From NCBI GenBank assembly GCA_964387075.1, contig CAYLVB010000012.1, positions 81,210-145,209 on the forward strand: a DNA stretch of 64,000 nucleotides, written 5' to 3'. The stretch comes from an uncultured Flavobacteriaceae bacterium. GTDB lineage: Bacteria; Bacteroidota; Bacteroidia; B-17B0; Aurantibacillaceae. A program made the translations under genes and the position numbers. This document shows, piece by piece, positions 5,801-64,000 of this stretch. The notes beneath the pieces are model-generated. The model had not been told where the DNA came from. It ran no database searches and saw only the letters and a program-made list of their open reading frames with translations. Numbering within the stretch: position 1 is the first letter of the stretch; every line of letters begins with the position of its first letter.

Positions 5801-5974
5801 TGTGGCTGTGCTGGAAAAGACCCCGCTAATATACGTATTACCCGATCCATCAGAAGTTATAGAGCGCCCGTCATCGGAGCCGGCACCGCCACCCGAACGT
5901 GCCCATTGATACGTTTGCGCATGTAATAGGGCCTGAATAAAAAGAAAAATGGAGATGAGTAATGCCTTTTTCAT
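2886..5974 (-). pseudogene. T9SS type A sorting-domain protein (SBBP beta-propeller repeats plus Ig/PKD-like repeats), split by a 1-bp frameshift near 3585
   Basis: ORF 3497..5974 (signal MKKALLISIF...HAQ, WAKSAG/FIAKYD repeats, ANAGxDxxIC repeats) lacks a CTD. The overlapping ORF 2886..3578 supplies the LYPNPSSG...GVYFV...KLVLE CTD. Confidence 0.8.
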
Positions 5975-6109
5975 GGTATTTGATTTGAAAACAAATATAA
6001 AAAAATCCTTCAAACAGACACCCTTATTACTGCGAAAACCGCTATACATATAAGGAAGGTTTTGGAATTAGATTTTTATTCCCTAACTTTAACGGTTTAG
6101 AGGTAATTC

Positions 6110-7117
6110 GTGATAAAGAAATTTTATATACCGTTTTGGTGCTTTGCGCTCTTTTCTTTTTTTTCAAGGGCGCAGGACATCCATTTCTCGCAATATTTTT
6201 CAACTCCGCTAACTATTTCTCCTTCCAATACCGGCAATTATTCGGGCGACTGGCGCGTAATGGCCAATTACCGTACCCAATGGAAAGAGGTAGCTAAACC
6301 TTACAATACCCAGTCGGTTGGTGCCGATAAGCAGTTCTATATTTTTAATGAGAAGATATCGGGCGGCTTATTGATCGTGAATGACCGCTCGGGCGGAACC
6401 TTCCAGGTAAATAAGATCCAGCTTTCTGGTGCTTATCATAAATTATTTGGAAAACATGCTTTGCACGCGGGAATTCAGCCCGGTTTTACGATGAAGAGCA
6501 TTTCGAAGAACGAAACTTTTCCTAATCAGCTCAATTGGGGAACCGGGAAGTTCGATTCAGGTCTGCCGAATAACGAAACAGACCTTCAGTTTCGTTTGAA
6601 TTACTTTGATCTGAATGTAGGTTTTGGTTATGACGTGAAATTCAAGAAAGCGGAGATCTTCACAACCTACGCGATCTATCACGTTAACTATCCGAAAGAA
6701 ACTTTTCTTGGAAATAGTAATATCCTGAAACCACGCCAGGTATTTGGCCTTGGTACCACCTGGTACGCCGCTTCTAAGATCACTTTGCAGCCATCCCTCA
6801 ACGTAATGGGAACCGACAAAGCTTCTGAGTTCATGATGGGAGCAAGGATGTTCTACTCTTTGGATAAGGAATTCTCCATTGAAAAATCACTTTTCGGCGG
6901 GGCGTATTTCCGTCACGGCTTCAGCAATCTTACCGACGCGGTCTTCGTAGCTGTTGGGATGAATTACAAACAGTATTATGGCGGTGTAAGCTACGATATC
7001 AATATCTCACAATTAAAAACGGCCTCTAATTACAAAGGCGCACTTGAGCTCTCTTTCATTTATACCGGCCTCAGCACACGCTTAGCCAAAACAGCCATTC
7101 CTTGTGATCGTTATTAA
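6110..7117 (+). CDS. PorP/SprF family type IX secretion system membrane protein
   Basis: AQDIHFSQYF...P..ISPSNTG, NYRTQW, GVSYDINIS...GALELS motifs. Confidence 0.92.
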   Translation: MIKKFYIPFWCFALFSFFSRAQDIHFSQYFSTPLTISPSNTGNYSGDWRVMANYRTQWKEVAKPYNTQSVGADKQFYIFNEKISGGLLIVNDRSGGTFQVNKIQLSGAYHKLFGKHALHAGIQPGFTMKSISKNETFPNQLNWGTGKFDSGLPNNETDLQFRLNYFDLNVGFGYDVKFKKAEIFTTYAIYHVNYPKETFLGNSNILKPRQVFGLGTTWYAASKITLQPSLNVMGTDKASEFMMGARMFYSLDKEFSIEKSLFGGAYFRHGFSNLTDAVFVAVGMNYKQYYGGVSYDINISQLKTASNYKGALELSFIYTGLSTRLAKTAIPCDRY

Positions 7118-9137
7118 GAGATTCAAATATATTTGTTTGTTCGTGCTGGCTTTGGGTTTTGCAGATGTTTACGCGCAGGACACCATCGATATTAAAAGTC
7201 TGAATTTCTCACAGGCCAAACGTTTTGGCAAAAGCGCCATGCAGCAGGGTGATTTTTACGCGGCCAGCGAATATTTCACCCAATGCACCAAATTAAAACC
7301 TTCTAATTCAGGCGCGGCATTTTTATTGGCCGAGTCGTACCGAAACGCCCGCGATTACGCACATGCACAGGAATGGTACGATAAGACCACGAAGCTGGAT
7401 CCCGACAAAGCGGTCGCCTATTACTATTCCGGCCTCATGCTCAAAATGAGCGGAAGCTGCGATAAGGCCAAAGAACAGTTCGCTAAGTTCAAAAAGAAAG
7501 CGGGCAGTGATAAAAGCCTTGCCGACATTAAAAAGCACGTTAAATTTGAGATAGCCGGCTGCGATTCAGTAATTCCCTTTAACAAATTGGTGGCCAACAC
7601 CAGCGTGGTGCATTTAGATTCAAGCATCAACAAGGTGCACGTGGACCATTCACCTGTCTTTCTGGATACCGCAACCATGCTGTACTCTTCGGTAAGAACA
7701 AACAAAAAAGTATTTACTGTAACCAGTCAGACTGATACAGTTGTGGGAGTTTACAAGAAATTCTATACGGCCAAAAAGCAGGGCGACAAATGGGTTTATA
7801 GTGGCGAGTTCGACCCCATGTTCAACAAAGAGGGATTTAATAATACCAACGGTGTTTTTTCGGGCGACGGGAAGCGCTTTTATTTCACGCGATGCAAGAA
7901 GAACTGGAAGGGGCAAATGATCTGTGCCATTTATGTGAGTCACAAAGATGGAGGAAGTTGGTCGGAGCCCGAGATGCTCGACAACAAGATCAATAACCCC
8001 AAATACACTTCTACCCAGCCTGCGGTTTCTATTGAGTCGGTAAAGCAAAATGAAGTAGTATATTTTGTGAGTGACAGGCCGGGAGGAAGAGGAGGGATGG
8101 ACATCTGGTATTTTGTATACGACCTCAAAAAGAAAACATACAGTGAACCCAAGAATGCGGGAAGCAAGATCAACACCAGTTCGGATGAGATGACTCCTTA
8201 TTACGACCAGGATCATCGCAACCTGTATTTCAGCTCGGCAGGCTGGCCGGGAATGGGTGGACTTGATGTTTTTCACGCCAGTGGCGAGATGAAACGCTTT
8301 TTACAGCCTGAGAACGTAGGCGCTCCGATCAATTCAGGCAGTGATGATCTTTACTTTGTGGAAGGAAAGAACAAGGAAGATGGGTTCTTTGTATCGAACC
8401 GCAAAGGCGGCGCGGCCGTGAAGAACAATCCTACCTGCTGCGATGATATCTATTCGTTCAAGCATTTGGAATATGTGCGCATCAATATGGCGGGGACCGT
8501 GCTGGATGAAAAGGGAAATCCAGTACCGAAGACCAAAGTTTCTCTGTTCGCAAAGAATGCCGGCTCAGAACCTGTTTTCATTAAAGATGTGGAAACCGAT
8601 GAGAAAGGGAATTATTCCATGAGCGTAATGGCGGGTAAGGAGTACAAGCTTGTTTTCGAAAAGGAAAAATACCTGAACGCAACACACGATTTTACGACCA
8701 AAGAAATTATCAAGTCGCAGGACCTGTCGCACAACGCTACTGTGAAGGAGATCAGCGACAAAGCTTATGTGTTAACGGATGTTCATTATGCTACCGACAA
8801 GCATGATCTTTTGGAATCCTCTCAAAAGGCGATCGACACCACTTTATTGGTGTTCCTCAATGATAACCCGGATGTGATCATCGAGATCAGCTCGCATACC
8901 GACGACCAGGCGAGTGATTCTTATAACCTGAAACTTTCGCAGCGAAGGGCCGATGGTGTGGTAAAGTATCTCATTTCAAAAGGTATTTCTGCTGAGAGAA
9001 TAAAGCCTGTTGGTTACGGCGAATCAAAACCGATGGCTGATAATAAGATCCCCGAAGGTCGCGCGCAGAACCGCCGTACCGAATTCAAGATACTCGGTAA
9101 ACTCCCGCCAAAGGAGAAAGAGTACGACGATAAATAA
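7104..9137 (+). CDS. OmpA-family protein with TPR, PD40 beta-propeller and carboxypeptidase-regulatory-like domains (PorE-like)
   Basis: TPRs, YFVSDRPGGRGGMDIW, LYFSSAGWPGMGGLDVF, C-terminal IEISSHTD...NLKLSQRRA...NRRTEF. Confidence 0.9.
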   Translation: MIVIKRFKYICLFVLALGFADVYAQDTIDIKSLNFSQAKRFGKSAMQQGDFYAASEYFTQCTKLKPSNSGAAFLLAESYRNARDYAHAQEWYDKTTKLDPDKAVAYYYSGLMLKMSGSCDKAKEQFAKFKKKAGSDKSLADIKKHVKFEIAGCDSVIPFNKLVANTSVVHLDSSINKVHVDHSPVFLDTATMLYSSVRTNKKVFTVTSQTDTVVGVYKKFYTAKKQGDKWVYSGEFDPMFNKEGFNNTNGVFSGDGKRFYFTRCKKNWKGQMICAIYVSHKDGGSWSEPEMLDNKINNPKYTSTQPAVSIESVKQNEVVYFVSDRPGGRGGMDIWYFVYDLKKKTYSEPKNAGSKINTSSDEMTPYYDQDHRNLYFSSAGWPGMGGLDVFHASGEMKRFLQPENVGAPINSGSDDLYFVEGKNKEDGFFVSNRKGGAAVKNNPTCCDDIYSFKHLEYVRINMAGTVLDEKGNPVPKTKVSLFAKNAGSEPVFIKDVETDEKGNYSMSVMAGKEYKLVFEKEKYLNATHDFTTKEIIKSQDLSHNATVKEISDKAYVLTDVHYATDKHDLLESSQKAIDTTLLVFLNDNPDVIIEISSHTDDQASDSYNLKLSQRRADGVVKYLISKGISAERIKPVGYGESKPMADNKIPEGRAQNRRTEFKILGKLPPKEKEYDDK

Positions 9138-33123: not shown

Positions 33124-35016
33124 CTATTCTCTTTTTTTAATTAGTATAGCAATTCTTAGTAAAACGCTAAGAACAAGAACTGCCTTGTCGGGTGAATAAT
33201 CTTCTAAATCTAAATGTGCATGCGCTACCACGTTCCGGATATTTGGACCAGCTTTGCTATTCATGATGAAATCTACGAATATTAGATGATCCAGTAGCAT
33301 TGTCTTATCCTCTTCTTCTAGGTTTTTTTCTTCTTCAATAAGCTTAAAAATATCAGACATCAATATTCCAAAGGTCTTTTCTTCCACAGTACCGTCTTCC
33401 TTTATTCTTGAGGTGAGAATTTTGAATTTTTCCTCACAAATTAGTCGAAGTATATATTCAACTTTAGGGGTTAAGGAATCTATTGAGCATACATAGCTTG
33501 GATTGCCCCCATTATTGGCTAAGGAAAGATTCAGCTGACTGAAAAACAGTTTAATTGGTTCGTCTAGCAATTTCGCAACAACTACCTTCCTAGTAAAGCC
33601 ATTATAGACCTTCACTATTTCTTCTCCGTACCAAGTATTGCTCGATAACCACTTTATAATAAATTCAGCAGTTATTTTATTTGCGCGCACTGCCTCATAA
33701 AAATAAGAAGCATGTATTTGCAAGTCAATTTGGGTGAGTAGTTCATACATCTGATAAAATGATACTCTGTCATCTTCAGATTGCGCTCCTATAGTTATAT
33801 TGTTATTCCCGTGTTTATCATAAATATCTACTGAAAGCATCCTTGAGAGGCTGAAATTTGTATCTTCGCTTTCCATTTTTTTAATCATAGAGAAAGTTGG
33901 AATCATTTCTCCGTATGCAATTCGTTTTAAAAGAAACTCAGGTTCTTTAGTTGAAACTTCCTCGTCTCTTTGTTTTTCTTTTGCCTTTGTGAACTCATCA
34001 ACTGCAGGAAAGGACATTTTACCAAAATTCATTTCCTTTTTTGCTTTCGTAAAAGCCTCATGTATTTCGTTAACTTTTTGCTCATCCCCTATCAATTTAT
34101 AATACTTTATGGCTGAAATATAAAATTTAGGGGCCACCATACCTTTCCTCTTTTCAGCTTCGGCAACATAACAATCAGCACATAATCTATACCAAGGGTC
34201 AGTTTCTTCTTTTAACTTTGCGGCTAAATGCACCGCGTTTTTAGCAATATCAATTGCATTATGGTTGTCAGTATTTTTGAATTCAACTGCAATCTCCCAG
34301 TTTTTTTTCAAAATTGGCTTTAGGCCATATTCAGAAAATTCCGAGAAATGTTCGTGTAATAACCGAGTATAACTAAAAAGGAGATGCCTAGTGCCTTCTT
34401 TGTTTTTATCCCAACTGGACAGTTTGTCATAAATAAAATTTCTAACTTGCTTATAAAACGGCACCATTTCCTTTACATTTCTTCTTTGATGAGCTAAAAG
34501 AAAAACATCTTTTGTTAGGGAAGTTAAATAGGTAACGTAATGCTTCTTTTTATTTATTTTGTCATCAATTGCCTTAGCGTAGTATGCATCCATTAAAGCA
34601 AACATAGATTTCAAAACCTCTGCAACAAACTGATTATCTCTTTTTTTCTTAGACTGAATTAAAAATATCCCGTATTTATATCGGATATAATCATTCTTGG
34701 ATTCATCGAATCTCTTTAAAATATATTCAAAATCAGCATCTGCATATTTTGTTATGTCCGGCCATTGAACTAAAATTTCCACTGCACCATTTGGTAATTT
34801 TCTCCCCTCAGTTGAAGCCGGCTCTATTCCTCTCTCCATTGATACACTAAAGTGTAATTGTTCATATTCCAAGGTTAGCAAACGATGTTCTTCATCAGTT
34901 CCTTCTTTTTTGCACTCGCCCCCCAATCTATTCAATTCATCTCTTAGGTTTGAATAATCACCGTAGTCTAGTTTTGAGGAATCTAATTTTGAAGTGTATG
35001 TGTTAAGAAGTTTCAA
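33124..35016 (-). CDS. DUF4209-like protein with C-terminal HEPN-type RxxxxH motif
   Basis: Helical 630 aa; C-terminal L.PKVEYILR...GPNIRNVVAHAHL. Confidence 0.7.
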   Translation of the reverse strand: MKLLNTYTSKLDSSKLDYGDYSNLRDELNRLGGECKKEGTDEEHRLLTLEYEQLHFSVSMERGIEPASTEGRKLPNGAVEILVQWPDITKYADADFEYILKRFDESKNDYIRYKYGIFLIQSKKKRDNQFVAEVLKSMFALMDAYYAKAIDDKINKKKHYVTYLTSLTKDVFLLAHQRRNVKEMVPFYKQVRNFIYDKLSSWDKNKEGTRHLLFSYTRLLHEHFSEFSEYGLKPILKKNWEIAVEFKNTDNHNAIDIAKNAVHLAAKLKEETDPWYRLCADCYVAEAEKRKGMVAPKFYISAIKYYKLIGDEQKVNEIHEAFTKAKKEMNFGKMSFPAVDEFTKAKEKQRDEEVSTKEPEFLLKRIAYGEMIPTFSMIKKMESEDTNFSLSRMLSVDIYDKHGNNNITIGAQSEDDRVSFYQMYELLTQIDLQIHASYFYEAVRANKITAEFIIKWLSSNTWYGEEIVKVYNGFTRKVVVAKLLDEPIKLFFSQLNLSLANNGGNPSYVCSIDSLTPKVEYILRLICEEKFKILTSRIKEDGTVEEKTFGILMSDIFKLIEEEKNLEEEDKTMLLDHLIFVDFIMNSKAGPNIRNVVAHAHLDLEDYSPDKAVLVLSVLLRIAILIKKRE

Positions 35017-36077
35017 GTCGTTGTAAATTTAATTTTGCTCCGAAGCCTTTCTCTCCTCTGAATTATATACCAAGCTTCTTCTAGTCCGCTAAATATTTCT
35101 TTCTCACTTGTAGCATGAATATAAAGAAAGCCATCAAGATTTTTAACAGACCTTTCCATATCCTGGGTTGGAGTAATATTAGAGATGCAAATTTCAATCA
35201 GGCCTTCTTCTCTTTTTCTCTCTGCCTTACCCCACTTAATGAACGTATCTTCTAAAGCCATTTGGCCTAATATCTGGTTCCAATGATACATTGAGCGTAC
35301 CCTTATTTCGGCAGGACCATAATTCATTCCCTCCTTCTTTTTAAGAAAAATGCTTTTAGCCTCAGTAGGTTTTTCAAAATACTGCATCAGTTCTTTATTT
35401 TCACAGATTGCGTTGAGAGCTTTTTGAGCGTACGCAATAGGCTCAAACTCTCGCTTCAGAGATTCTAAATTATCATATATATAGCCTTTCATTAAATGGA
35501 AGAAGGTACATCCAAGTAGAAAATTGACTAGCATGATTGAGCAAACCCATATCTGCCAACGGGATAGTTGAACATCCTTTGTTAGAAGGAGTAAAACGAA
35601 CACAACAAAGGATAAAACAAAGTATTCTCTTAACCGGGAATGGTTTTCACTAATGAATTTATCAGTTTCCTCCTTATCTAACTCCATAAGTGCCTCCGAA
35701 AAAACAATAATATGCTTCTTTGGATTTAAGTATCCATAGCTCTCCTTTGCTACTCCAATAAAACTTAATATCTCCACAAATGTTTTTCGTTTGTTCCATG
35801 GCCAAGCTAGCAATCGAATAAGCAGGTCGCCAATAATTACTTCCCCACAGAGCCTCCACAAAAGGTACCATACTACAAATATTCCTAAAAAAAAATAAAT
35901 TAACTTGGTCGTAGATAAAGAGGGAGGTAGTGGATCCTTTATGAGACTTTGAATGGAGAAACTATATCCAAATAATAAACAGGTAAAAAAGAAGGTGATT
36001 AAAAGCTTAAAGAGAAGTATTATAAGTTTCTCAAGTTTGGCAGGCTCTTCAGTAAGTAGTTTGGCTAAATTATACAT
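35013..36077 (-). CDS. Hypothetical membrane protein (about 4 TM helices plus soluble C-terminal domain)
   Basis: Two pairs of hydrophobic segments; its stop overlaps the TTG start of the downstream gene. ATG 36077 or TTG 36092. Confidence 0.75.
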   Translation of the reverse strand: MYNLAKLLTEEPAKLEKLIILLFKLLITFFFTCLLFGYSFSIQSLIKDPLPPSLSTTKLIYFFLGIFVVWYLLWRLCGEVIIGDLLIRLLAWPWNKRKTFVEILSFIGVAKESYGYLNPKKHIIVFSEALMELDKEETDKFISENHSRLREYFVLSFVVFVLLLLTKDVQLSRWQIWVCSIMLVNFLLGCTFFHLMKGYIYDNLESLKREFEPIAYAQKALNAICENKELMQYFEKPTEAKSIFLKKKEGMNYGPAEIRVRSMYHWNQILGQMALEDTFIKWGKAERKREEGLIEICISNITPTQDMERSVKNLDGFLYIHATSEKEIFSGLEEAWYIIQRRERLRSKIKFTTT

Positions 36078-36270
36078 ACTCAAAGATAGCAAACTACCGT
36101 TTATCTTCTGCTAAAATAACCGCTTTAGAGAATTGTGTAGTTAAATCCCGTAACCTCTGCTAATTCATAAAAAACGTCGATTTCTATCGGGGTATTTTCC
36201 GTAATTGTTTTGAAGGAAATTTGAACTATATGCCAAAAACTTAAATCATTAAATTCGGTAATTTTTTTAT

Positions 36271-59696: not shown

Positions 59697-60878
59697 ATGC
59701 ATTTAAGTAACCGACAACTTTTCTTACAACACGTGGCTCAAACGAGCCCTGCCCCGGTGGGACTGGAGATCGTTTCTGCGAATGGTGTTTATTTGAAGGA
59801 TGTGAACGGAAAGGAATACATCGATCTTATTTCCGGAATTTCGGTAAGTAACGTGGGGCATTGTCACCCCGAAGTTGTTGCTGCCATTGAAAAGCAAGCC
59901 AAAACCTATATGCACCTGATGGTGTATGGCGAGTACATTCAGAGTCCGCAGGTGGAATTGGCGCAGGCGTTGGTGAAACTATTGCCCAAGAAGCTCAGCA
60001 GTGTTTATTTTGTGAACTCGGGATCGGAAGCTACCGAAGGAGCGATGAAGCTATCGAAGCGCTTTACCGGTAGGAGTGAGATCATTTCCTGCAAGGATTC
60101 CTATCATGGAAGTACACAGGGAGCTTTAAGCATCATCGGTAACGAATTCTTCAAAACGAATTATCGTCCGCTTTTACCGGATACGAAGTATATTGCTTTT
60201 AACAGTGAAAAGGATCTCGAAGAGATTACTTCGAAAACTGCCTGCGTTATTGTAGAGACCATTCAAAGTGAAGCGGGAGTTATTGCTCCGAAGAATGATT
60301 GGTTAAAGAAATTAAGAGAGCGCTGTACAGAAACAGGAACCCTTCTTGTTTTTGATGAAGTGCAGGCGGGTTTCGGGAGGACAGGAACCTTCTTTGCTTT
60401 TGAGCAGTTCAATGTTGTGCCCGATATTTTACTTTTAGGAAAAGGAATGGGAGGGGGGATGCCCATTGGCGCTTTTGTGGCTTCGGCCGAGATCATGCAT
60501 GCATTAACGGATAATCCTGTTTTGGGCCACATGACAACCTTTGGTGGTCACCCGGTTTGTTGCGCGGCTTCTTTGGCTTGTTTGAACTTAATTTCAGGAA
60601 AGAAACTCTACGAGCGTGGGAAAAACATTGCAGCCATCATAAAAAAAGAACTAGTTCACCCTAAAATAAAGGAGATCCGTGCTTCGGGAGCTTTAATTGC
60701 CGTTGATTTTGGCGACGAGAAATACAATATGTCTGTCATCCACAATTGCATTGAGAACGGCGTTATTACCGATTGGTTCCTCTTCAACCCACAAAGTATG
60801 CGTATTGCTCCGCCGTTGACTATTACAGATGAGGAACTAAAGAAGGCTTGTGGGGTTATTTTGGGGGTGATTCAATAA
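59697..60878 (+). CDS. Class III PLP aminotransferase (acetylornithine aminotransferase-like)
   Basis: NSGSEA.EGA.K, YHG.T, FDEVQ.GFGRTG, GKGMGGG, TTFGG.P. Confidence 0.93.
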   Translation: MHLSNRQLFLQHVAQTSPAPVGLEIVSANGVYLKDVNGKEYIDLISGISVSNVGHCHPEVVAAIEKQAKTYMHLMVYGEYIQSPQVELAQALVKLLPKKLSSVYFVNSGSEATEGAMKLSKRFTGRSEIISCKDSYHGSTQGALSIIGNEFFKTNYRPLLPDTKYIAFNSEKDLEEITSKTACVIVETIQSEAGVIAPKNDWLKKLRERCTETGTLLVFDEVQAGFGRTGTFFAFEQFNVVPDILLLGKGMGGGMPIGAFVASAEIMHALTDNPVLGHMTTFGGHPVCCAASLACLNLISGKKLYERGKNIAAIIKKELVHPKIKEIRASGALIAVDFGDEKYNMSVIHNCIENGVITDWFLFNPQSMRIAPPLTITDEELKKACGVILGVIQ

Positions 60879-60967
60879 CGTTTGGCGACTACACGCCGTT
60901 TTTAGCTTGTCCAAGTTATGCATTTAGGCGTTAACACGCAAAAAATGGAGTGTAGTTGCGGTTAGCA
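60873..60967 (-). repeat. attC-like recombination site 1 (95 bp)
   Basis: Plus strand CAATAAC-GTTTG-GCGACTACACGCCGTTTTT...AAAAATGGAGTGTAGTTGC-G-GTTAGCA; arms 16/19 Watson-Crick plus 2 G.T. Confidence 0.8.
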
Positions 60968-61004
60968 CCTGTACGGCCGCACACAGTATTTGTCTAGCCA
61001 AACG

Positions 61005-61841
61005 TCAGACCAATTTAAATGTCTGAAAGAAGGCTTTGATGAATTTTTCGGAACCCAAGTAAAACTTGTCGGCACTATGCAACATCAACATATTTACATT
61101 TGTTGCAAAGGAGCCGTCAACGTCTTTGCGTATAATTTTGTTATAGAACGCTTTATTTCTAATGTCAATGCCGTTTTTGTCTTTGCCTTCATAAAAGACG
61201 CAACAATGTTTATTGTCAATCGGAACAATTATTGTGTGACCTATTTCAAATTGTTGTTGGTACTCATTGTTTCTCAAGTTGAATTCATTGTCAACGATAA
61301 GAACGGGGTTGTCGCTGGTAATAAATTGAGAAGTGTCCGTCAGTCGAAGAATTTTTACGACTTTAAATTCATGAGCCTCTAATAACGCTGGAACTATTTC
61401 CTTAACATGTGCGATTTTATAATCTTCTTTGATTTTGTCTAACTCAAAATGAAACTGTTCGGGAACATTTTTTAGGAACAAATCAAATTGTTTAGGAGTC
61501 CTAGCGTGAAGGGATAAAAAGAACATTAAAAGTTTGCTTCGCTGCAACATGTCAAACTGATTTGCAGTTGGGTCAACGAGTAAATTGTAAATGTCTGTGT
61601 ATTCATTTTCGACATGGTGAGCGTAAAATGTCGTTTCGACAACCATAGAATCATTTCCTCCGTCAATGGTGTAAAAGTCCTCAACGACTGTCGCACTTTT
61701 TAAGGAGATTGGTCTGTTAAGTTCTTTATTTCTCATGTCGGCGGACTGGCCCACGCGCTTGAATTTTCGGAAAATCTTTTTTCCGTCGTCCGAGAAATTT
61801 TTGAGGTAGCACCTAGGAGTCGTATGTTGGTCTTTTGTCAA
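61005..61841 (-). CDS. DUF4238 domain-containing protein (cassette cargo)
   Basis: N-terminal QHTTPRCYLKNF, SL..RTP, FITSDNPV, P...KHC; TTG start. Confidence 0.82.
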   Translation of the reverse strand: MTKDQHTTPRCYLKNFSDDGKKIFRKFKRVGQSADMRNKELNRPISLKSATVVEDFYTIDGGNDSMVVETTFYAHHVENEYTDIYNLLVDPTANQFDMLQRSKLLMFFLSLHARTPKQFDLFLKNVPEQFHFELDKIKEDYKIAHVKEIVPALLEAHEFKVVKILRLTDTSQFITSDNPVLIVDNEFNLRNNEYQQQFEIGHTIIVPIDNKHCCVFYEGKDKNGIDIRNKAFYNKIIRKDVDGSFATNVNMLMLHSADKFYLGSEKFIKAFFQTFKLV

Positions 61842-61881
61842 AGTCTTTTGTCTTAACGGAATGTCTGTCCGGCCATATTGG

Positions 61882-62065
61882 TACTAACGTTTGGCGACTA
61901 ATGGCCGTTGGGCTTTTGGAACACTCAACTTTCTTAACCGACAAAAGGTTATTTAAAGATACCAAACTTTATTAGCCGCCGCAAATTAAATTTCGCGAAG
62001 CGACCTTGTTAATAGCGCGCGGCGATGACCCGATTCCGCCCAATGGCCATTAGTTGCTGTTACCC
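61882..62065 (-). repeat. attC-like recombination site 2 (184 bp)
   Basis: Plus strand TACTAAC-GTTTG-GCGACTAATGGCCGTTGGGC...GCCCAATGGCCATTAGTTGC-T-GTTACCC; arms 18/20 plus 2 G.T. Confidence 0.82.
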
Positions 62066-62110
62066 CTTGTGCGCCACACAAAGGTTGTCATAGTATTCAA
62101 TTTAAAACAT

Positions 62111-62140
62111 TTTGTCATTCACATAAAAGGAGTAAATTTG
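62111..62140 (+). promoter_or_regulatory. Cassette-internal Bacteroidetes promoter
   Basis: TTTG (62111-62114), 18-nt spacer, TAAATTTG (62133-62140), 23 nt before ATG 62164. Confidence 0.55.
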
Positions 62141-62163
62141 ATATAAATAGCCTAACTCGGTTT

Positions 62164-63018
62164 ATGTCGTCATTAGCAGATTCAAGTTCAGTATTGCTGC
62201 CAGGAAAACTTCTGCCTCAGCATCAGACGGCTATTAGTTTGATAGTCGGCAAGCTTGAATCGCCTCAAGTCACTGATTTCATTTGGTTTGACCTTTGTTG
62301 CGGAAAAGGCCAGATACTTAATCAACTAAAAGGGAATATTTCAGTCAAAAATGTATCAAAAATACATTTCAAAGCTTTTGATATTAATAACGACGATATC
62401 AGGGTAAACGAGCAAATTGGAAAGTCAATAGGATTTAAATCATATGATTCAAAGGTTGGAGAAATAAGTGATTTTTCAACTTTGATTCCAGAAACTGAAA
62501 AGAAAGATTTTATTACTTGCATCAATAGTTTTCATGAAATAGATCCGATTCTAATACCAAAGGTTCTTCTGGAAAGTCTTATTCGTTTGACCGCGGATGG
62601 TATTTTGTTTATCTATGATATGGAGGATTTAGTTGATCAGGAGCTTGGAGCCATCACATGGAGTAGATCAGAGGTATTTGAAATAACAAGTGGTTTAATG
62701 AGCGCCATCGATGTTAGCGATTATACACCTGAACCTCAAGGATGGCCGCATTCGAAGACAACAGGATGGAGTGTTCAAATTCATAGAAGAAGTATTTCTA
62801 AAACTCTTGTATTTAATACGGAACAGAAAAATGAAATTTTGGCAAAATTGGAAAAACTTATATTTGAAATACTAGAGCGAAAAAAGAAACTTGCAATAGA
62901 AGCTTTAGAGTCTTTTACGGATAGTAATTCCGACACTAAGTCTGAGGAAAACCTTCAGGTAAAGTTCTTGTACGATTTTTGGGCTATTAACAGAATTTTA
63001 TCAAAGCATAAGAGATGA
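62164..63018 (+). CDS. Class I SAM-dependent methyltransferase-fold protein (cassette cargo)
   Basis: Motif I WFDLCCGKG, AFDIN, DFITCINSFHEI, L..DG.LFIYD; helical C-terminal extension. Confidence 0.8.
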   Translation: MSSLADSSSVLLPGKLLPQHQTAISLIVGKLESPQVTDFIWFDLCCGKGQILNQLKGNISVKNVSKIHFKAFDINNDDIRVNEQIGKSIGFKSYDSKVGEISDFSTLIPETEKKDFITCINSFHEIDPILIPKVLLESLIRLTADGILFIYDMEDLVDQELGAITWSRSEVFEITSGLMSAIDVSDYTPEPQGWPHSKTTGWSVQIHRRSISKTLVFNTEQKNEILAKLEKLIFEILERKKKLAIEALESFTDSNSDTKSEENLQVKFLYDFWAINRILSKHKR

Positions 63019-63833
63019 TGAAAATATTTTTTTCCATACCGCATGAACTAATCGAATTATTCGATCAAGTCAAAACAGAACTTGAAAACAAAGGGTATTT
63101 GGTTGTCAATAATTTCCGAGAAGAAGTATATTCTTCGTTTTCTGGTGAAACTGTTTCTTTTGTAAGTAATCACATTCTCAACGCCGATATAGTAGTAGGT
63201 GTTGACGTGAGAAATCCTTCCGTACTATTTGAATTGGGCGTTGCCTCTGGAAGTTCCAAAAAAATTATTATCATGGAACGCGACGAAAGTGATATCCCTA
63301 GTTTTTTAAAAGATTTTTATTATTTGCGTTGGAAGGATTCTATGTTTTTAGCAGAGCAAATTGACCATTTCATAAGAACGCAAATCAAAAGCACAGTTAA
63401 ATCAATCACTCCTGCTGAATTTCATAACCTGAGAGATTTAATTCGTGCATCCTCAGATTCTATTTCTGCTTTGGATAATGTAAGTCCTGTGGATTTTGAA
63501 TCACTTGTATTCGAATTTTTCAATACTAAAGGCTATGGACCTACTGAACTTCCTAGGAATGGTCTTGATTATGGTTATGATATGGTCTTATCGAATTATA
63601 AAGAATACAATAAAACCTTGGTAGAAATAAAAAAATATCGATCAAATCAAAGAATTTCTATCGCTCCAATTCAGCAACTGTTGGGTGCTGTATCAGCGTA
63701 CAAGGCAGATCATTCTATTTTGATAACGTCCTCTGGTTTTACTTCGTCAGCGATTTCTTTTTCAAACAAAATGGTCAGTCAAAAAGTTGAGCTTTGGGAT
63801 TTTGAAAAATTGAGGCAGGAAGTCTTGACGTAA
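63015..63833 (+). CDS. Fusion of an N-terminal nucleoside 2'-deoxyribosyltransferase (NDT)-like domain and a C-terminal Mrr-type restriction endonuclease domain
   Basis: N-terminal ILNADIVV...NPSVLFELGVA...KKII; C-terminal FESLV...GY...DYGYD...VEIKKY...ITSSGFT..A; ATGA overlap with the upstream gene. Confidence 0.8.
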   Translation: MMKIFFSIPHELIELFDQVKTELENKGYLVVNNFREEVYSSFSGETVSFVSNHILNADIVVGVDVRNPSVLFELGVASGSSKKIIIMERDESDIPSFLKDFYYLRWKDSMFLAEQIDHFIRTQIKSTVKSITPAEFHNLRDLIRASSDSISALDNVSPVDFESLVFEFFNTKGYGPTELPRNGLDYGYDMVLSNYKEYNKTLVEIKKYRSNQRISIAPIQQLLGAVSAYKADHSILITSSGFTSSAISFSNKMVSQKVELWDFEKLRQEVLT

Positions 63834-63853
63834 TTTTTTTCAGTCTGTCGTCC

Positions 63854-63890
63854 TGGCGCATTAGGGGTAACTACCTTATAGCATCAGTTT
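63854..63890 (-). other. Candidate attI-like (primary) recombination site
   Basis: Minus strand GATGCTATAAGGTA-G/TTACCCC: GTT core with no attC hairpin on the outer side. Confidence 0.5.
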
Positions 63891-64000
63891 TTTCCTTCCT
63901 ATCCTGCTGTTTTAGCAAGATAACAGCCAGTATATTGCGCTTTTCGGTATAATCAAAAATAGGCAATTTTTGGCAAATAAAAAAAACGATAAGTTTTTGG

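Follow-up and report, generated by a model that had tools for sequence, protein, structure and literature searches.

A two-gene module joining a methyltransferase of an unnamed family to an NDT/TIR-like–Mrr protein: a probable defence unit in an integron-type cassette

We describe a pair of genes near one end of a 64,000-nucleotide stretch (the window) of contig CAYLVB010000012.1, from the assembly GCA_964387075.1 of an uncultured Flavobacteriaceae bacterium. Gene 1 (62164-63018, plus strand) encodes a class I S-adenosylmethionine (SAM)-dependent methyltransferase of 284 amino acids (aa) that belongs to an unnamed family, and gene 2 (63015-63833, plus strand) encodes a 272-aa protein in which an NDT/TIR-like domain is fused to an Mrr_cat domain. 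As an initial annotation made from the sequence alone had noted, the two open reading frames (ORFs) are coupled through a shared ATGA at 63015-63018, a 4-nt overlap. That annotation had also spoken of one cassette, which proved to be literally so, as complementary cores, GTTACCCC at 62059 and GGGGTAAC at 63864, bracket the pair in a cassette of about 61888-63870. The GC content of the two ORFs is 0.35 compared to 0.46 in window positions 1-60870, and at each of 23 loci the homologous pair is lower in GC than the DNA flanking it. The pair forms a mobile, low-GC, integron-type cassette.

The pair is also a real, tightly conserved two-gene module. When GTDB genomes were scanned by pattern with the gene 1 alignment, 25 loci were recovered, and in 23 of them a gene 2 homologue is the next gene downstream; in the reverse scan of metagenomes with the gene 2 alignment, all three loci recovered carry gene 1 directly upstream (one of them, L033, has 85% DNA identity to L002). 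Homologue co-occurrence, which the initial annotation had put forward as a check of its proposal, is therefore evident in both directions, and this coupling rules out chance adjacency. The junctions of the 23 pairs comprise 21 overlaps of 4 nt (19 ATGA, one GTGA and one TTGA), one 2-nt gap and one 13-nt overlap. Eight phyla are represented, namely Bacteroidota, Bacillota, Actinomycetota, Acidobacteriota, Chloroflexota, Planctomycetota, Pseudomonadota and Verrucomicrobiota (assigned from the record titles). The two gene 1 loci that have no gene 2 seem damaged: of the profile, L026 covers just the first 134 positions, and in L016 gene 1 is without its N-terminal DS motif and the genome is without a gene 2 match. 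At L018 gene 1 is broken at its 5' end and the gene 2 behind it is intact; what L065 has of gene 1 is a fragment interrupted by insertion-sequence-like DNA. Trees of the 23 complete pairs are congruent (mirror-tree distance correlation r=0.60, reached by 0 of 2000 permutations), which demonstrates co-inheritance and not contact, because shared ancestry alone can yield such congruence. A profile search of 1.84 billion representatives returned 105 proteins at E<=1e-30; one protein, P0030, is a 600-aa methyltransferase-NDT-Mrr fusion, a single case known here from its protein sequence alone.

The unit is rare. Gene 1 was found in none of 60 relatives and in none of 400 genomes of the class, and no further complete pair came from genome samples of 401 Bacteroidota, of 301 plus 301 and of 401 plus 401 (L045 and L047 repeat the DNA of L013 and L025). 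A phage or plasmid origin was considered and rejected, as no relative turned up in viral contigs, plasmids or phages. Other Mrr matches in the sampled genomes had no gene 1 within 1.5 kb, and all but one of these cover the nuclease part only; the remaining one, L031, is a 464-aa TIR-Mrr protein of different architecture.

Gene 1 matches the Pfam family Methyltransf_31 above the cut-off (E=5.6e-7) and has class I motif I (DLCCGKG). The initial annotation had remarked on this motif and on the lack of the catalytic motifs of DNA methyltransferases, and both observations hold: neither (D/N/S)P(P/I)(Y/F/W) nor PC occurs in the window protein, and only one of the 48 aligned homologues has such a motif (SPIF, in L004). 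After the fourth strand the family motif is N-x-x-H-E, whose His-acid pair we take to resemble that of small-molecule O- and C-methyltransferases. The structural model (pLDDT, a confidence score, of 87) consists of a Rossmann core at about residues 1-213 followed by a C-terminal two-helix hairpin at 219-282. Across 48 sequences with identities down to 23% there are 13 invariant columns, including H20, D43, G47, G49, N121-x-x-H124-E125, D152, E160, G162 and W202; in addition, position 240 is Lys or Arg in 48/48 and position 208 Arg or Lys in 43/48, and the protein is acidic (pI 4.9-6.2) in 47/48. The best 50 structural neighbours of the model are small-molecule, peptide or RNA methyltransferases, headed by TmtA (Z 17.0, root-mean-square deviation (rmsd) 3.2, 191 residues aligned). 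Other neighbours are phosphoethanolamine methyltransferase, OxaG, DhpI, histamine methyltransferase and METTL6, and CmoA and HEN1 (Z 15.2) are close behind the best match; none stands clear, and the hairpin is hardly tested in the comparison. With Foldseek the top query TM-scores (a measure of fold similarity) were about 0.5. Kinship to TrmK, a Foldseek match, was considered and rejected (rmsd about 11, and missing from the 50 VIA-align matches). The NCBIfam scan gave no match above cut-off, and PADLOC-DB 2.0 contained no family matching gene 1 at E<=1. Of the two proteins the methyltransferase is the slower to evolve (mean tree distance 1.8 versus 2.9 for its partner), which would be easier to reconcile with a fixed chemical substrate than with a protein surface that co-diverges. 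Judged from this conservation, gene 1 probably encodes an active enzyme with a single conserved substrate.

A more distant methyltransferase subfamily (P0130, P0135, P0138, P0139, P0144, P0149, P0150, P0155, P0158 and P0175) keeps N-x-x-H-E and the C-terminal hairpin, has LE(W/Y)xA in place of ELGA, and often has a CKD/CKN motif upstream; in two members the methyltransferase is joined in one protein with a signal peptide, a vWA domain and a membrane helix.

The fusion of an NDT-like to an Mrr-like domain that was proposed for gene 2 stands, with its two halves resting on different grounds. The Mrr_cat match is strong (E=4.8e-22, residues 153-268) and is accompanied by one to NA-iREase1 (E=1.4e-8). 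In the window protein the Nuc_deoxyrib_tr match is weak (E=0.078), and the NDT assignment comes by way of homologues, family profile and model. Among 27 gene 2 homologues, Nuc_deoxyrib_tr is matched in 23 at E<=0.05, TIR_2 in 16, CAP12 TIR in 11, DUF4062 in six, NA-iREase1 (an inactive restriction endonuclease family) in 26 and Mrr_cat in all 27, and many members have a TIR_2-like first strand. Two domains are seen in the model (pLDDT 86; pTM, a score of overall fold, 0.58), the NDT/TIR-like one spanning about residues 1-125. For this domain MilB/BcmB/DNPH1 (Rcl) ranked first both by family profile (E=2.7e-7) and by Foldseek (E=8e-7, rmsd 2.5). These MilB/DNPH1-type neighbours act on nucleoside monophosphates: by their PDB titles, MilB on hydroxymethyl-CMP (hmCMP), and DNPH1 on 5-hydroxymethyl-dUMP (5hmdUMP) or N6-substituted AMPs. 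Residue E73, kept in 25/27, is the counterpart in the alignment of the Glu in the 'EIG' motif of MilB/BcmB and in the 'ELG' motif of Rcl. The second acid of MilB/BcmB, a catalytic Asp in the helix before the third strand, corresponds to position 50 and is replaced by a non-acidic residue in 27/27 (I 12, P 6, V 5, A 2, L 1, S 1), in what is a sequence-profile alignment only. Consequently, of the base-cleaving NDT domain suggested initially, the nucleophile Glu is present and the second acid is not, which makes base cleavage less certain for this domain than a binding role. All 27 sequences have E162, D189 and K206 in the nuclease domain, where position 204 is E in 20, V in three, D in two and Q in two. 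No sequence has lost both E73 and E204, an uninformative result given that about 0.2 would be expected by chance. The 27-sequence alignment omits L007, which is cut by a contig end, and L024, which has a C-terminal extension; the L024 homologue (5942-7156) has an extra C-terminal domain of about 130 aa and lies downstream of a CHAT-domain gene. PADLOC matches of gene 2 are at the domain level only (mREase_IV 4.6e-12, PDC-S02 3.7e-10, TIR effector 0.0013). Several further ESM Atlas clusters share its approximate size and domain content, which suggests that effectors of this type may also serve with other partners.

We found no named system that corresponds to the pair, in agreement with the initial annotation. 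PADLOC-DB 2.0 has no single system whose models match both proteins, and the pair is not described in the literature searched, with the proviso that the supplementary tables of large prediction studies, which lay largely outside the search, may list it untested. None of the described systems matched the pair in the accessible parts of three sources (PMC13092281; 10.1101/2025.01.08.631966; PMC13069673), and four Pfam terms had no matches in the supplement file of the last of these; PMC13434031 contained none of the terms looked for. Similar in its logic to the mechanism proposed below is Kongming (KomABC; PMC13454610, PMC13276650), in which a base-modified nucleotide signal is sensed by a nucleotide-enzyme-like protein that activates an effector; however, it employs a purine NTP pyrophosphatase and SIR2, families not matched by the pair, and has no methyltransferase, NDT or Mrr component. 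Metis (10.1101/2025.11.05.686725) is likewise a two-gene system, is abortive and is activated by a methylated mononucleotide, N6-methyl-dAMP (m6dAMP), but its methyl mark comes from host DNA methylases, and it comprises a calcineurin-like phosphoesterase and a HAD phosphatase with neither a methyltransferase of its own nor a nuclease; neither of its component families is among the Pfam assignments of genes 1 and 2. Two further defence units have a methyltransferase gene, like the pair. One is Toutatis (10.1101/2024.07.02.601686), a two-gene integron cassette of V. cholerae, but its TutA, of 64 aa, suffices by itself. The other is Ambrosia (10.1101/2025.09.30.679545), but there an N6 DNA methyltransferase is accompanied by regulators and an HNH nuclease, and in neither source, as far as accessible, is an NDT-Mrr fusion described. 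With the type IV Mrr/MspJI family (PMC12707154) gene 2 shares the Mrr_cat nuclease domain but not the N-terminus, which in that family is a winged helix or SRA domain, nor is that family characterized by the almost constant methyltransferase coupling seen for gene 2. As Mrr_cat also occurs as a generic effector domain (10.1101/2024.07.02.601686), the Mrr-type nuclease domain of the initial annotation is retained, but does not by itself make gene 2 a type IV restriction enzyme. The NDT effector of retron Ec86 and MilB/BcmB/DNPH1 have the fold and the nucleophile Glu in common with gene 2, from which they differ in the second acid and in the fused nuclease, and the pair is a unit without a reverse transcriptase. 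Finally, a classical type II restriction-modification system needs an (N/D/S)PP(Y/F/W) or PC motif, and the gene 1 protein of the window has neither.

What, then, is the function of the pair? Its genomic neighbourhood offers a first indication. Neighbouring ORFs were scanned in 26 loci (107 of 183 ORFs, the other 76 being short, distant or probably spurious frames removed by hand), and 14 of the 107, in ten loci, had PADLOC matches at E<=1e-25. A defence gene or operon is directly adjacent to the pair in four cases: PDC-S56 in L002 (where a type I methyltransferase and SIR2 are also found), DRT5 in L005 (with a HamB-like, Hachiman-like helicase), PDC-S11 in L008, and a Lamassu-like operon in L014 (LmuB). 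Other loci have PycC of Pycsar (L015), PDC-S01 (L013 and L016) or PDC-M19B (L019), and three matches are generic (a kinase, an AAA ATPase and an HhH-GPD glycosylase). The pair often lies near defence genes, a proximity that the initial annotation had proposed to test; the enrichment, however, falls short of significance, as discussed below. We consider a defence role for the pair likely. The module as a whole, undescribed and built on a new enzyme family, is probably defensive in an abortive manner, under the control of a signal or of a guard.

In the mechanism that we favour, tentatively, infection would lead the methyltransferase to methylate a free nucleotide, yielding a small signal such as a methylated mononucleotide; the gene 2 protein would bind this signal through its NDT-like domain, and its Mrr-type nuclease would thereby be switched on, so that DNA would be destroyed and the infection aborted. 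Possible triggers are deoxynucleoside monophosphates from phage-driven breakdown of host DNA, phage-specific modified nucleotides, or a phage protein that binds the C-terminal hairpin. Arguing for such a scheme are the near-invariant pocket of small-molecule type in gene 1, an NMP-binding (nucleoside monophosphate-binding) fold in gene 2 whose catalytic set is partly lost, the conservation of the nuclease core, and Metis and Kongming as precedents. A sensor role for the NDT-like domain is consistent with the second acid missing throughout, with the loss of the Glu in 2/27, and with nearest structures that act on NMPs, several of them modified. We infer that the nuclease would be the effector, the NDT-like domain the sensor and a small molecule the substrate of gene 1. 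More doubtful is the full proposition, an alarm consisting of a free nucleotide that a dedicated SAM-dependent family methylates and that a nuclease-fused receptor of the NDT fold reads.

Several observations weigh against the favoured mechanism. The frequency of defence neighbours, 14/107 compared to 2/52 ORFs in a control from the pair's own genome region (both belonging to a HigBA-like pair that lies downstream of gene 2 at a distance of about 3 kb), is suggestive and not significant (Fisher p=0.09). The E73-type Glu is kept as it is in catalytic TIR/NIR NADases (10.64898/2026.09.04.749371), and the NDT effector of retron Ec86 also keeps it (PMC13276650); its retention in 25/27 means that the NDT-like domain may be an enzyme. 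Val in place of the middle acid of the nuclease motif, E204, in 3/27 calls nuclease activity into question in those members. No sensor or trigger domain is evident in the proteins of the pair. Structures of NTMT1 are among the Foldseek matches of gene 1, and its language-model neighbours outside its own family include protein N-terminal methyltransferases (0.93). Lastly, translational coupling and natural fusion suit a stoichiometric complex at least as well as they suit a diffusible signal.

The last two points lead to the strongest alternative, which we regard as possible though unlikely: gene 2 would encode a constitutively toxic nuclease or NADase that the methyltransferase keeps off, by binding or by methylating it (e.g., at the N-terminus or the catalytic Glu), until host shut-off or a phage-driven depletion of SAM, as by the T3 SAM lyase, releases it. 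A phage SAM lyase has indeed been described (PMC12707154). This explanation accounts for gene order, coupling and fusion equally well as signalling does: the methyltransferase comes first and overlaps its partner by 4 nt in 21/23, the trees are congruent, P0030 joins the two proteins, the enzyme is acidic in 47/48, its look-alikes include the protein N-terminal methyltransferases, and both partnerless loci (L016 and L026) retain the methyltransferase side only. On the other hand, gene 2 is intact at L018 despite the 5' break in the gene 1 before it, even if expression may be lost there; the gene 1 pocket is near-invariant while the partner is only 33% conserved per column; and a literature search for methylating antitoxins found none.

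Could the pair instead be an atypical restriction-modification system, in which the methyltransferase places a non-classical mark on DNA or RNA and the NDT-Mrr protein, with its NDT domain as base reader or glycosylase, cuts according to the presence or absence of that mark? A methyltransferase gene paired with a nuclease gene, the type IIG-like appearance of P0030, the conserved basic residues at positions 240 and 208, and nucleic-acid methyltransferases among the structural neighbours (HEN1, METTL6 and CmoA, with TrmK in the Foldseek matches) would be in keeping with this, but the NPPY/DPPY and PC motifs are missing, the protein is acidic, no target-recognition domain is evident and the NDT-fold matches are mononucleotide enzymes; we regard this reading as improbable. 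Slightly more improbable still is a reversal of roles within gene 2, by which the N-terminal domain would be the effector (a TIR/NIR-like NADase or nucleotide glycosidase), the Mrr domain mainly a DNA-binding trigger and the methyltransferase an accessory regulator. The retention of E73, the TIR_2, CAP12 TIR and DUF4062 matches, the NA-iREase1 matches in 26/27 and the change of E204 to Val in 3/27 would accord with this, but the three core nuclease residues are invariant, E73 has been lost twice, and the near-obligate methyltransferase is left unexplained. A role other than against phages, either in a selfish addiction module that stabilizes cassette arrays or in a stress or detoxification unit, is very improbable: the location in an integron-type array, the non-significant enrichment and the 16/26 loci without a PADLOC-recognized neighbour (E<=1e-25) would allow it, but nuclease and NDT/TIR domains are typical of defence effectors and L002, L005, L008 and L014 place the pair directly beside defence genes.

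The interpretation given initially, a nuclease or base-cleaving effector paired with a non-DNA methyltransferase in a new defence system, is in sum partly supported. To our knowledge, methyltransferases in bacterial immunity are almost always self-markers of DNA; here, in eight phyla, a family of non-DNA type is nearly always coupled to one effector. A new immune chemistry would follow from either leading mechanism, with methylation serving 1. to synthesize a signal or 2. as an off-switch that monitors SAM. If an alarm based on nucleotide methylation exists, it would add a class of signal synthase to the cyclases, TIRs and deaminases, together with a new receptor fold, and phage SAM lyases would become direct anti-signalling weapons. 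The unit lends itself readily to testing, as it is 1.7 kb in length, encodes two soluble proteins with clear catalytic residues, and has homologues in cultured strains (Paenibacillus plantarum, P. lutrae, Skermanella aerolata and Singulisphaera). It also indicates that integron-type arrays of Bacteroidota carry candidate defence cassettes.

The array in which the pair resides reads, on the minus strand, attI-like site, inverted pair, attC-like hairpin, DUF4238 gene, attC-like hairpin and the stop codon of a class III aminotransferase gene. The attI-like site (63864..63970, minus strand; …GCTATAAGGTAG|TTACCCC), behind which the pair is the first cassette, has 96% identity over 103 nt to G000:C3:201670-201772 and 94% to C5:74530-74601, on two other contigs of the genome; the C3 copy sits directly behind an integron-integrase-like gene and before other genes, and the C5 copy ends an array. 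The attC-like site of the pair cassette (61881..62066, minus strand) forms a hairpin (z=-4.5 versus shuffles), has complementary cores and has a 92% copy at C5:70985-71158. The second cassette (61005..61841, minus strand; cores GTTAGCAC/GTACTAAC) encodes a 278-aa protein of Pfam family DUF4238 (E=1.6e-22) that also matches PADLOC DUF4238-Pers (E=6e-7). We take DUF4238 to be a single-gene anti-phage system, and this cassette is a separate unit outside the methyltransferase/nuclease pair. Copies of its attC-like site (60872..60968, minus strand; hairpin z=-2.2) are present on C3 and C5. In the window this site overlaps the stop codon of the chromosomal gene for the aminotransferase, and it is at or before this site that similarity to same-genus genomes stops: the aminotransferase is common to them, the cassettes are not. 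Complementary cassette ends are also present at the Bacteroidota homologue loci L003 (GTTATGTG/CACATAAC) and L004 (GTTGTGCG/CGCACAAC). The integrase-like gene (C3:200849-201667) matches TIGR02249 at E=2e-32, which is below the curated cut-off, and below-cut-off matches were also obtained in 14/14 controls.

A promoter-like site of the Bacteroidota type (62111..62140, plus strand; TTTG-N18-TAAATTTG) ends 23 nt upstream of gene 1 and would transcribe the pair opposite to the direction of the array; the consensus pattern matches four times in the window compared to 2.0 by chance, so that it is its position alone that is suggestive. Rfam had no match in the 3.5 kb surrounding the pair. An assembly artefact was considered and rejected, as depth is even (12.8-13.1, first run) over the cassette and its flanks in contigs from two DNA runs, which are possibly the source of this DNA and make the depth check something other than independent support.

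Some further observations concern these arrays and their surroundings. One attI-like sequence is common to three integron-type arrays in the genome (window 60872-63970, G000:C3:200849-206009 and G000:C5:70985-74601), and only the C3 array is adjoined by the integrase-like gene, which is co-directional and ends right at the attI-like site; the other arrays resemble satellite arrays in which attI has been retained. In another genome of the genus (L059; G415:C166:2925-6153) different genes lie between the same aminotransferase and the same downstream gene, marking this as a variable site; these genes, which follow an attC-like sequence, code for a small membrane protein and for a Cys-rich one of about 110 aa. 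The HigBA-like toxin-antitoxin pair of the control region (L001:9209-9897, on G000:C12, about 3 kb past the window end) corresponds to PADLOC PD-Lambda-2 A/B (E 4.5e-37 and 2.8e-42). In an Acidobacteriaceae genome (L015:7749-10769) the genes behind the pair encode an ATPase-Mrr protein and a Pycsar cyclase along with a PycTM-like protein, and an error-prone polymerase cassette adjoins. Within the window there is a second low-GC stretch (0.34-0.36) at 33124-36092 on the minus strand, with ORFs of 630 and 359 aa, the former having a weak match to PADLOC PDC-S39 (7e-14).

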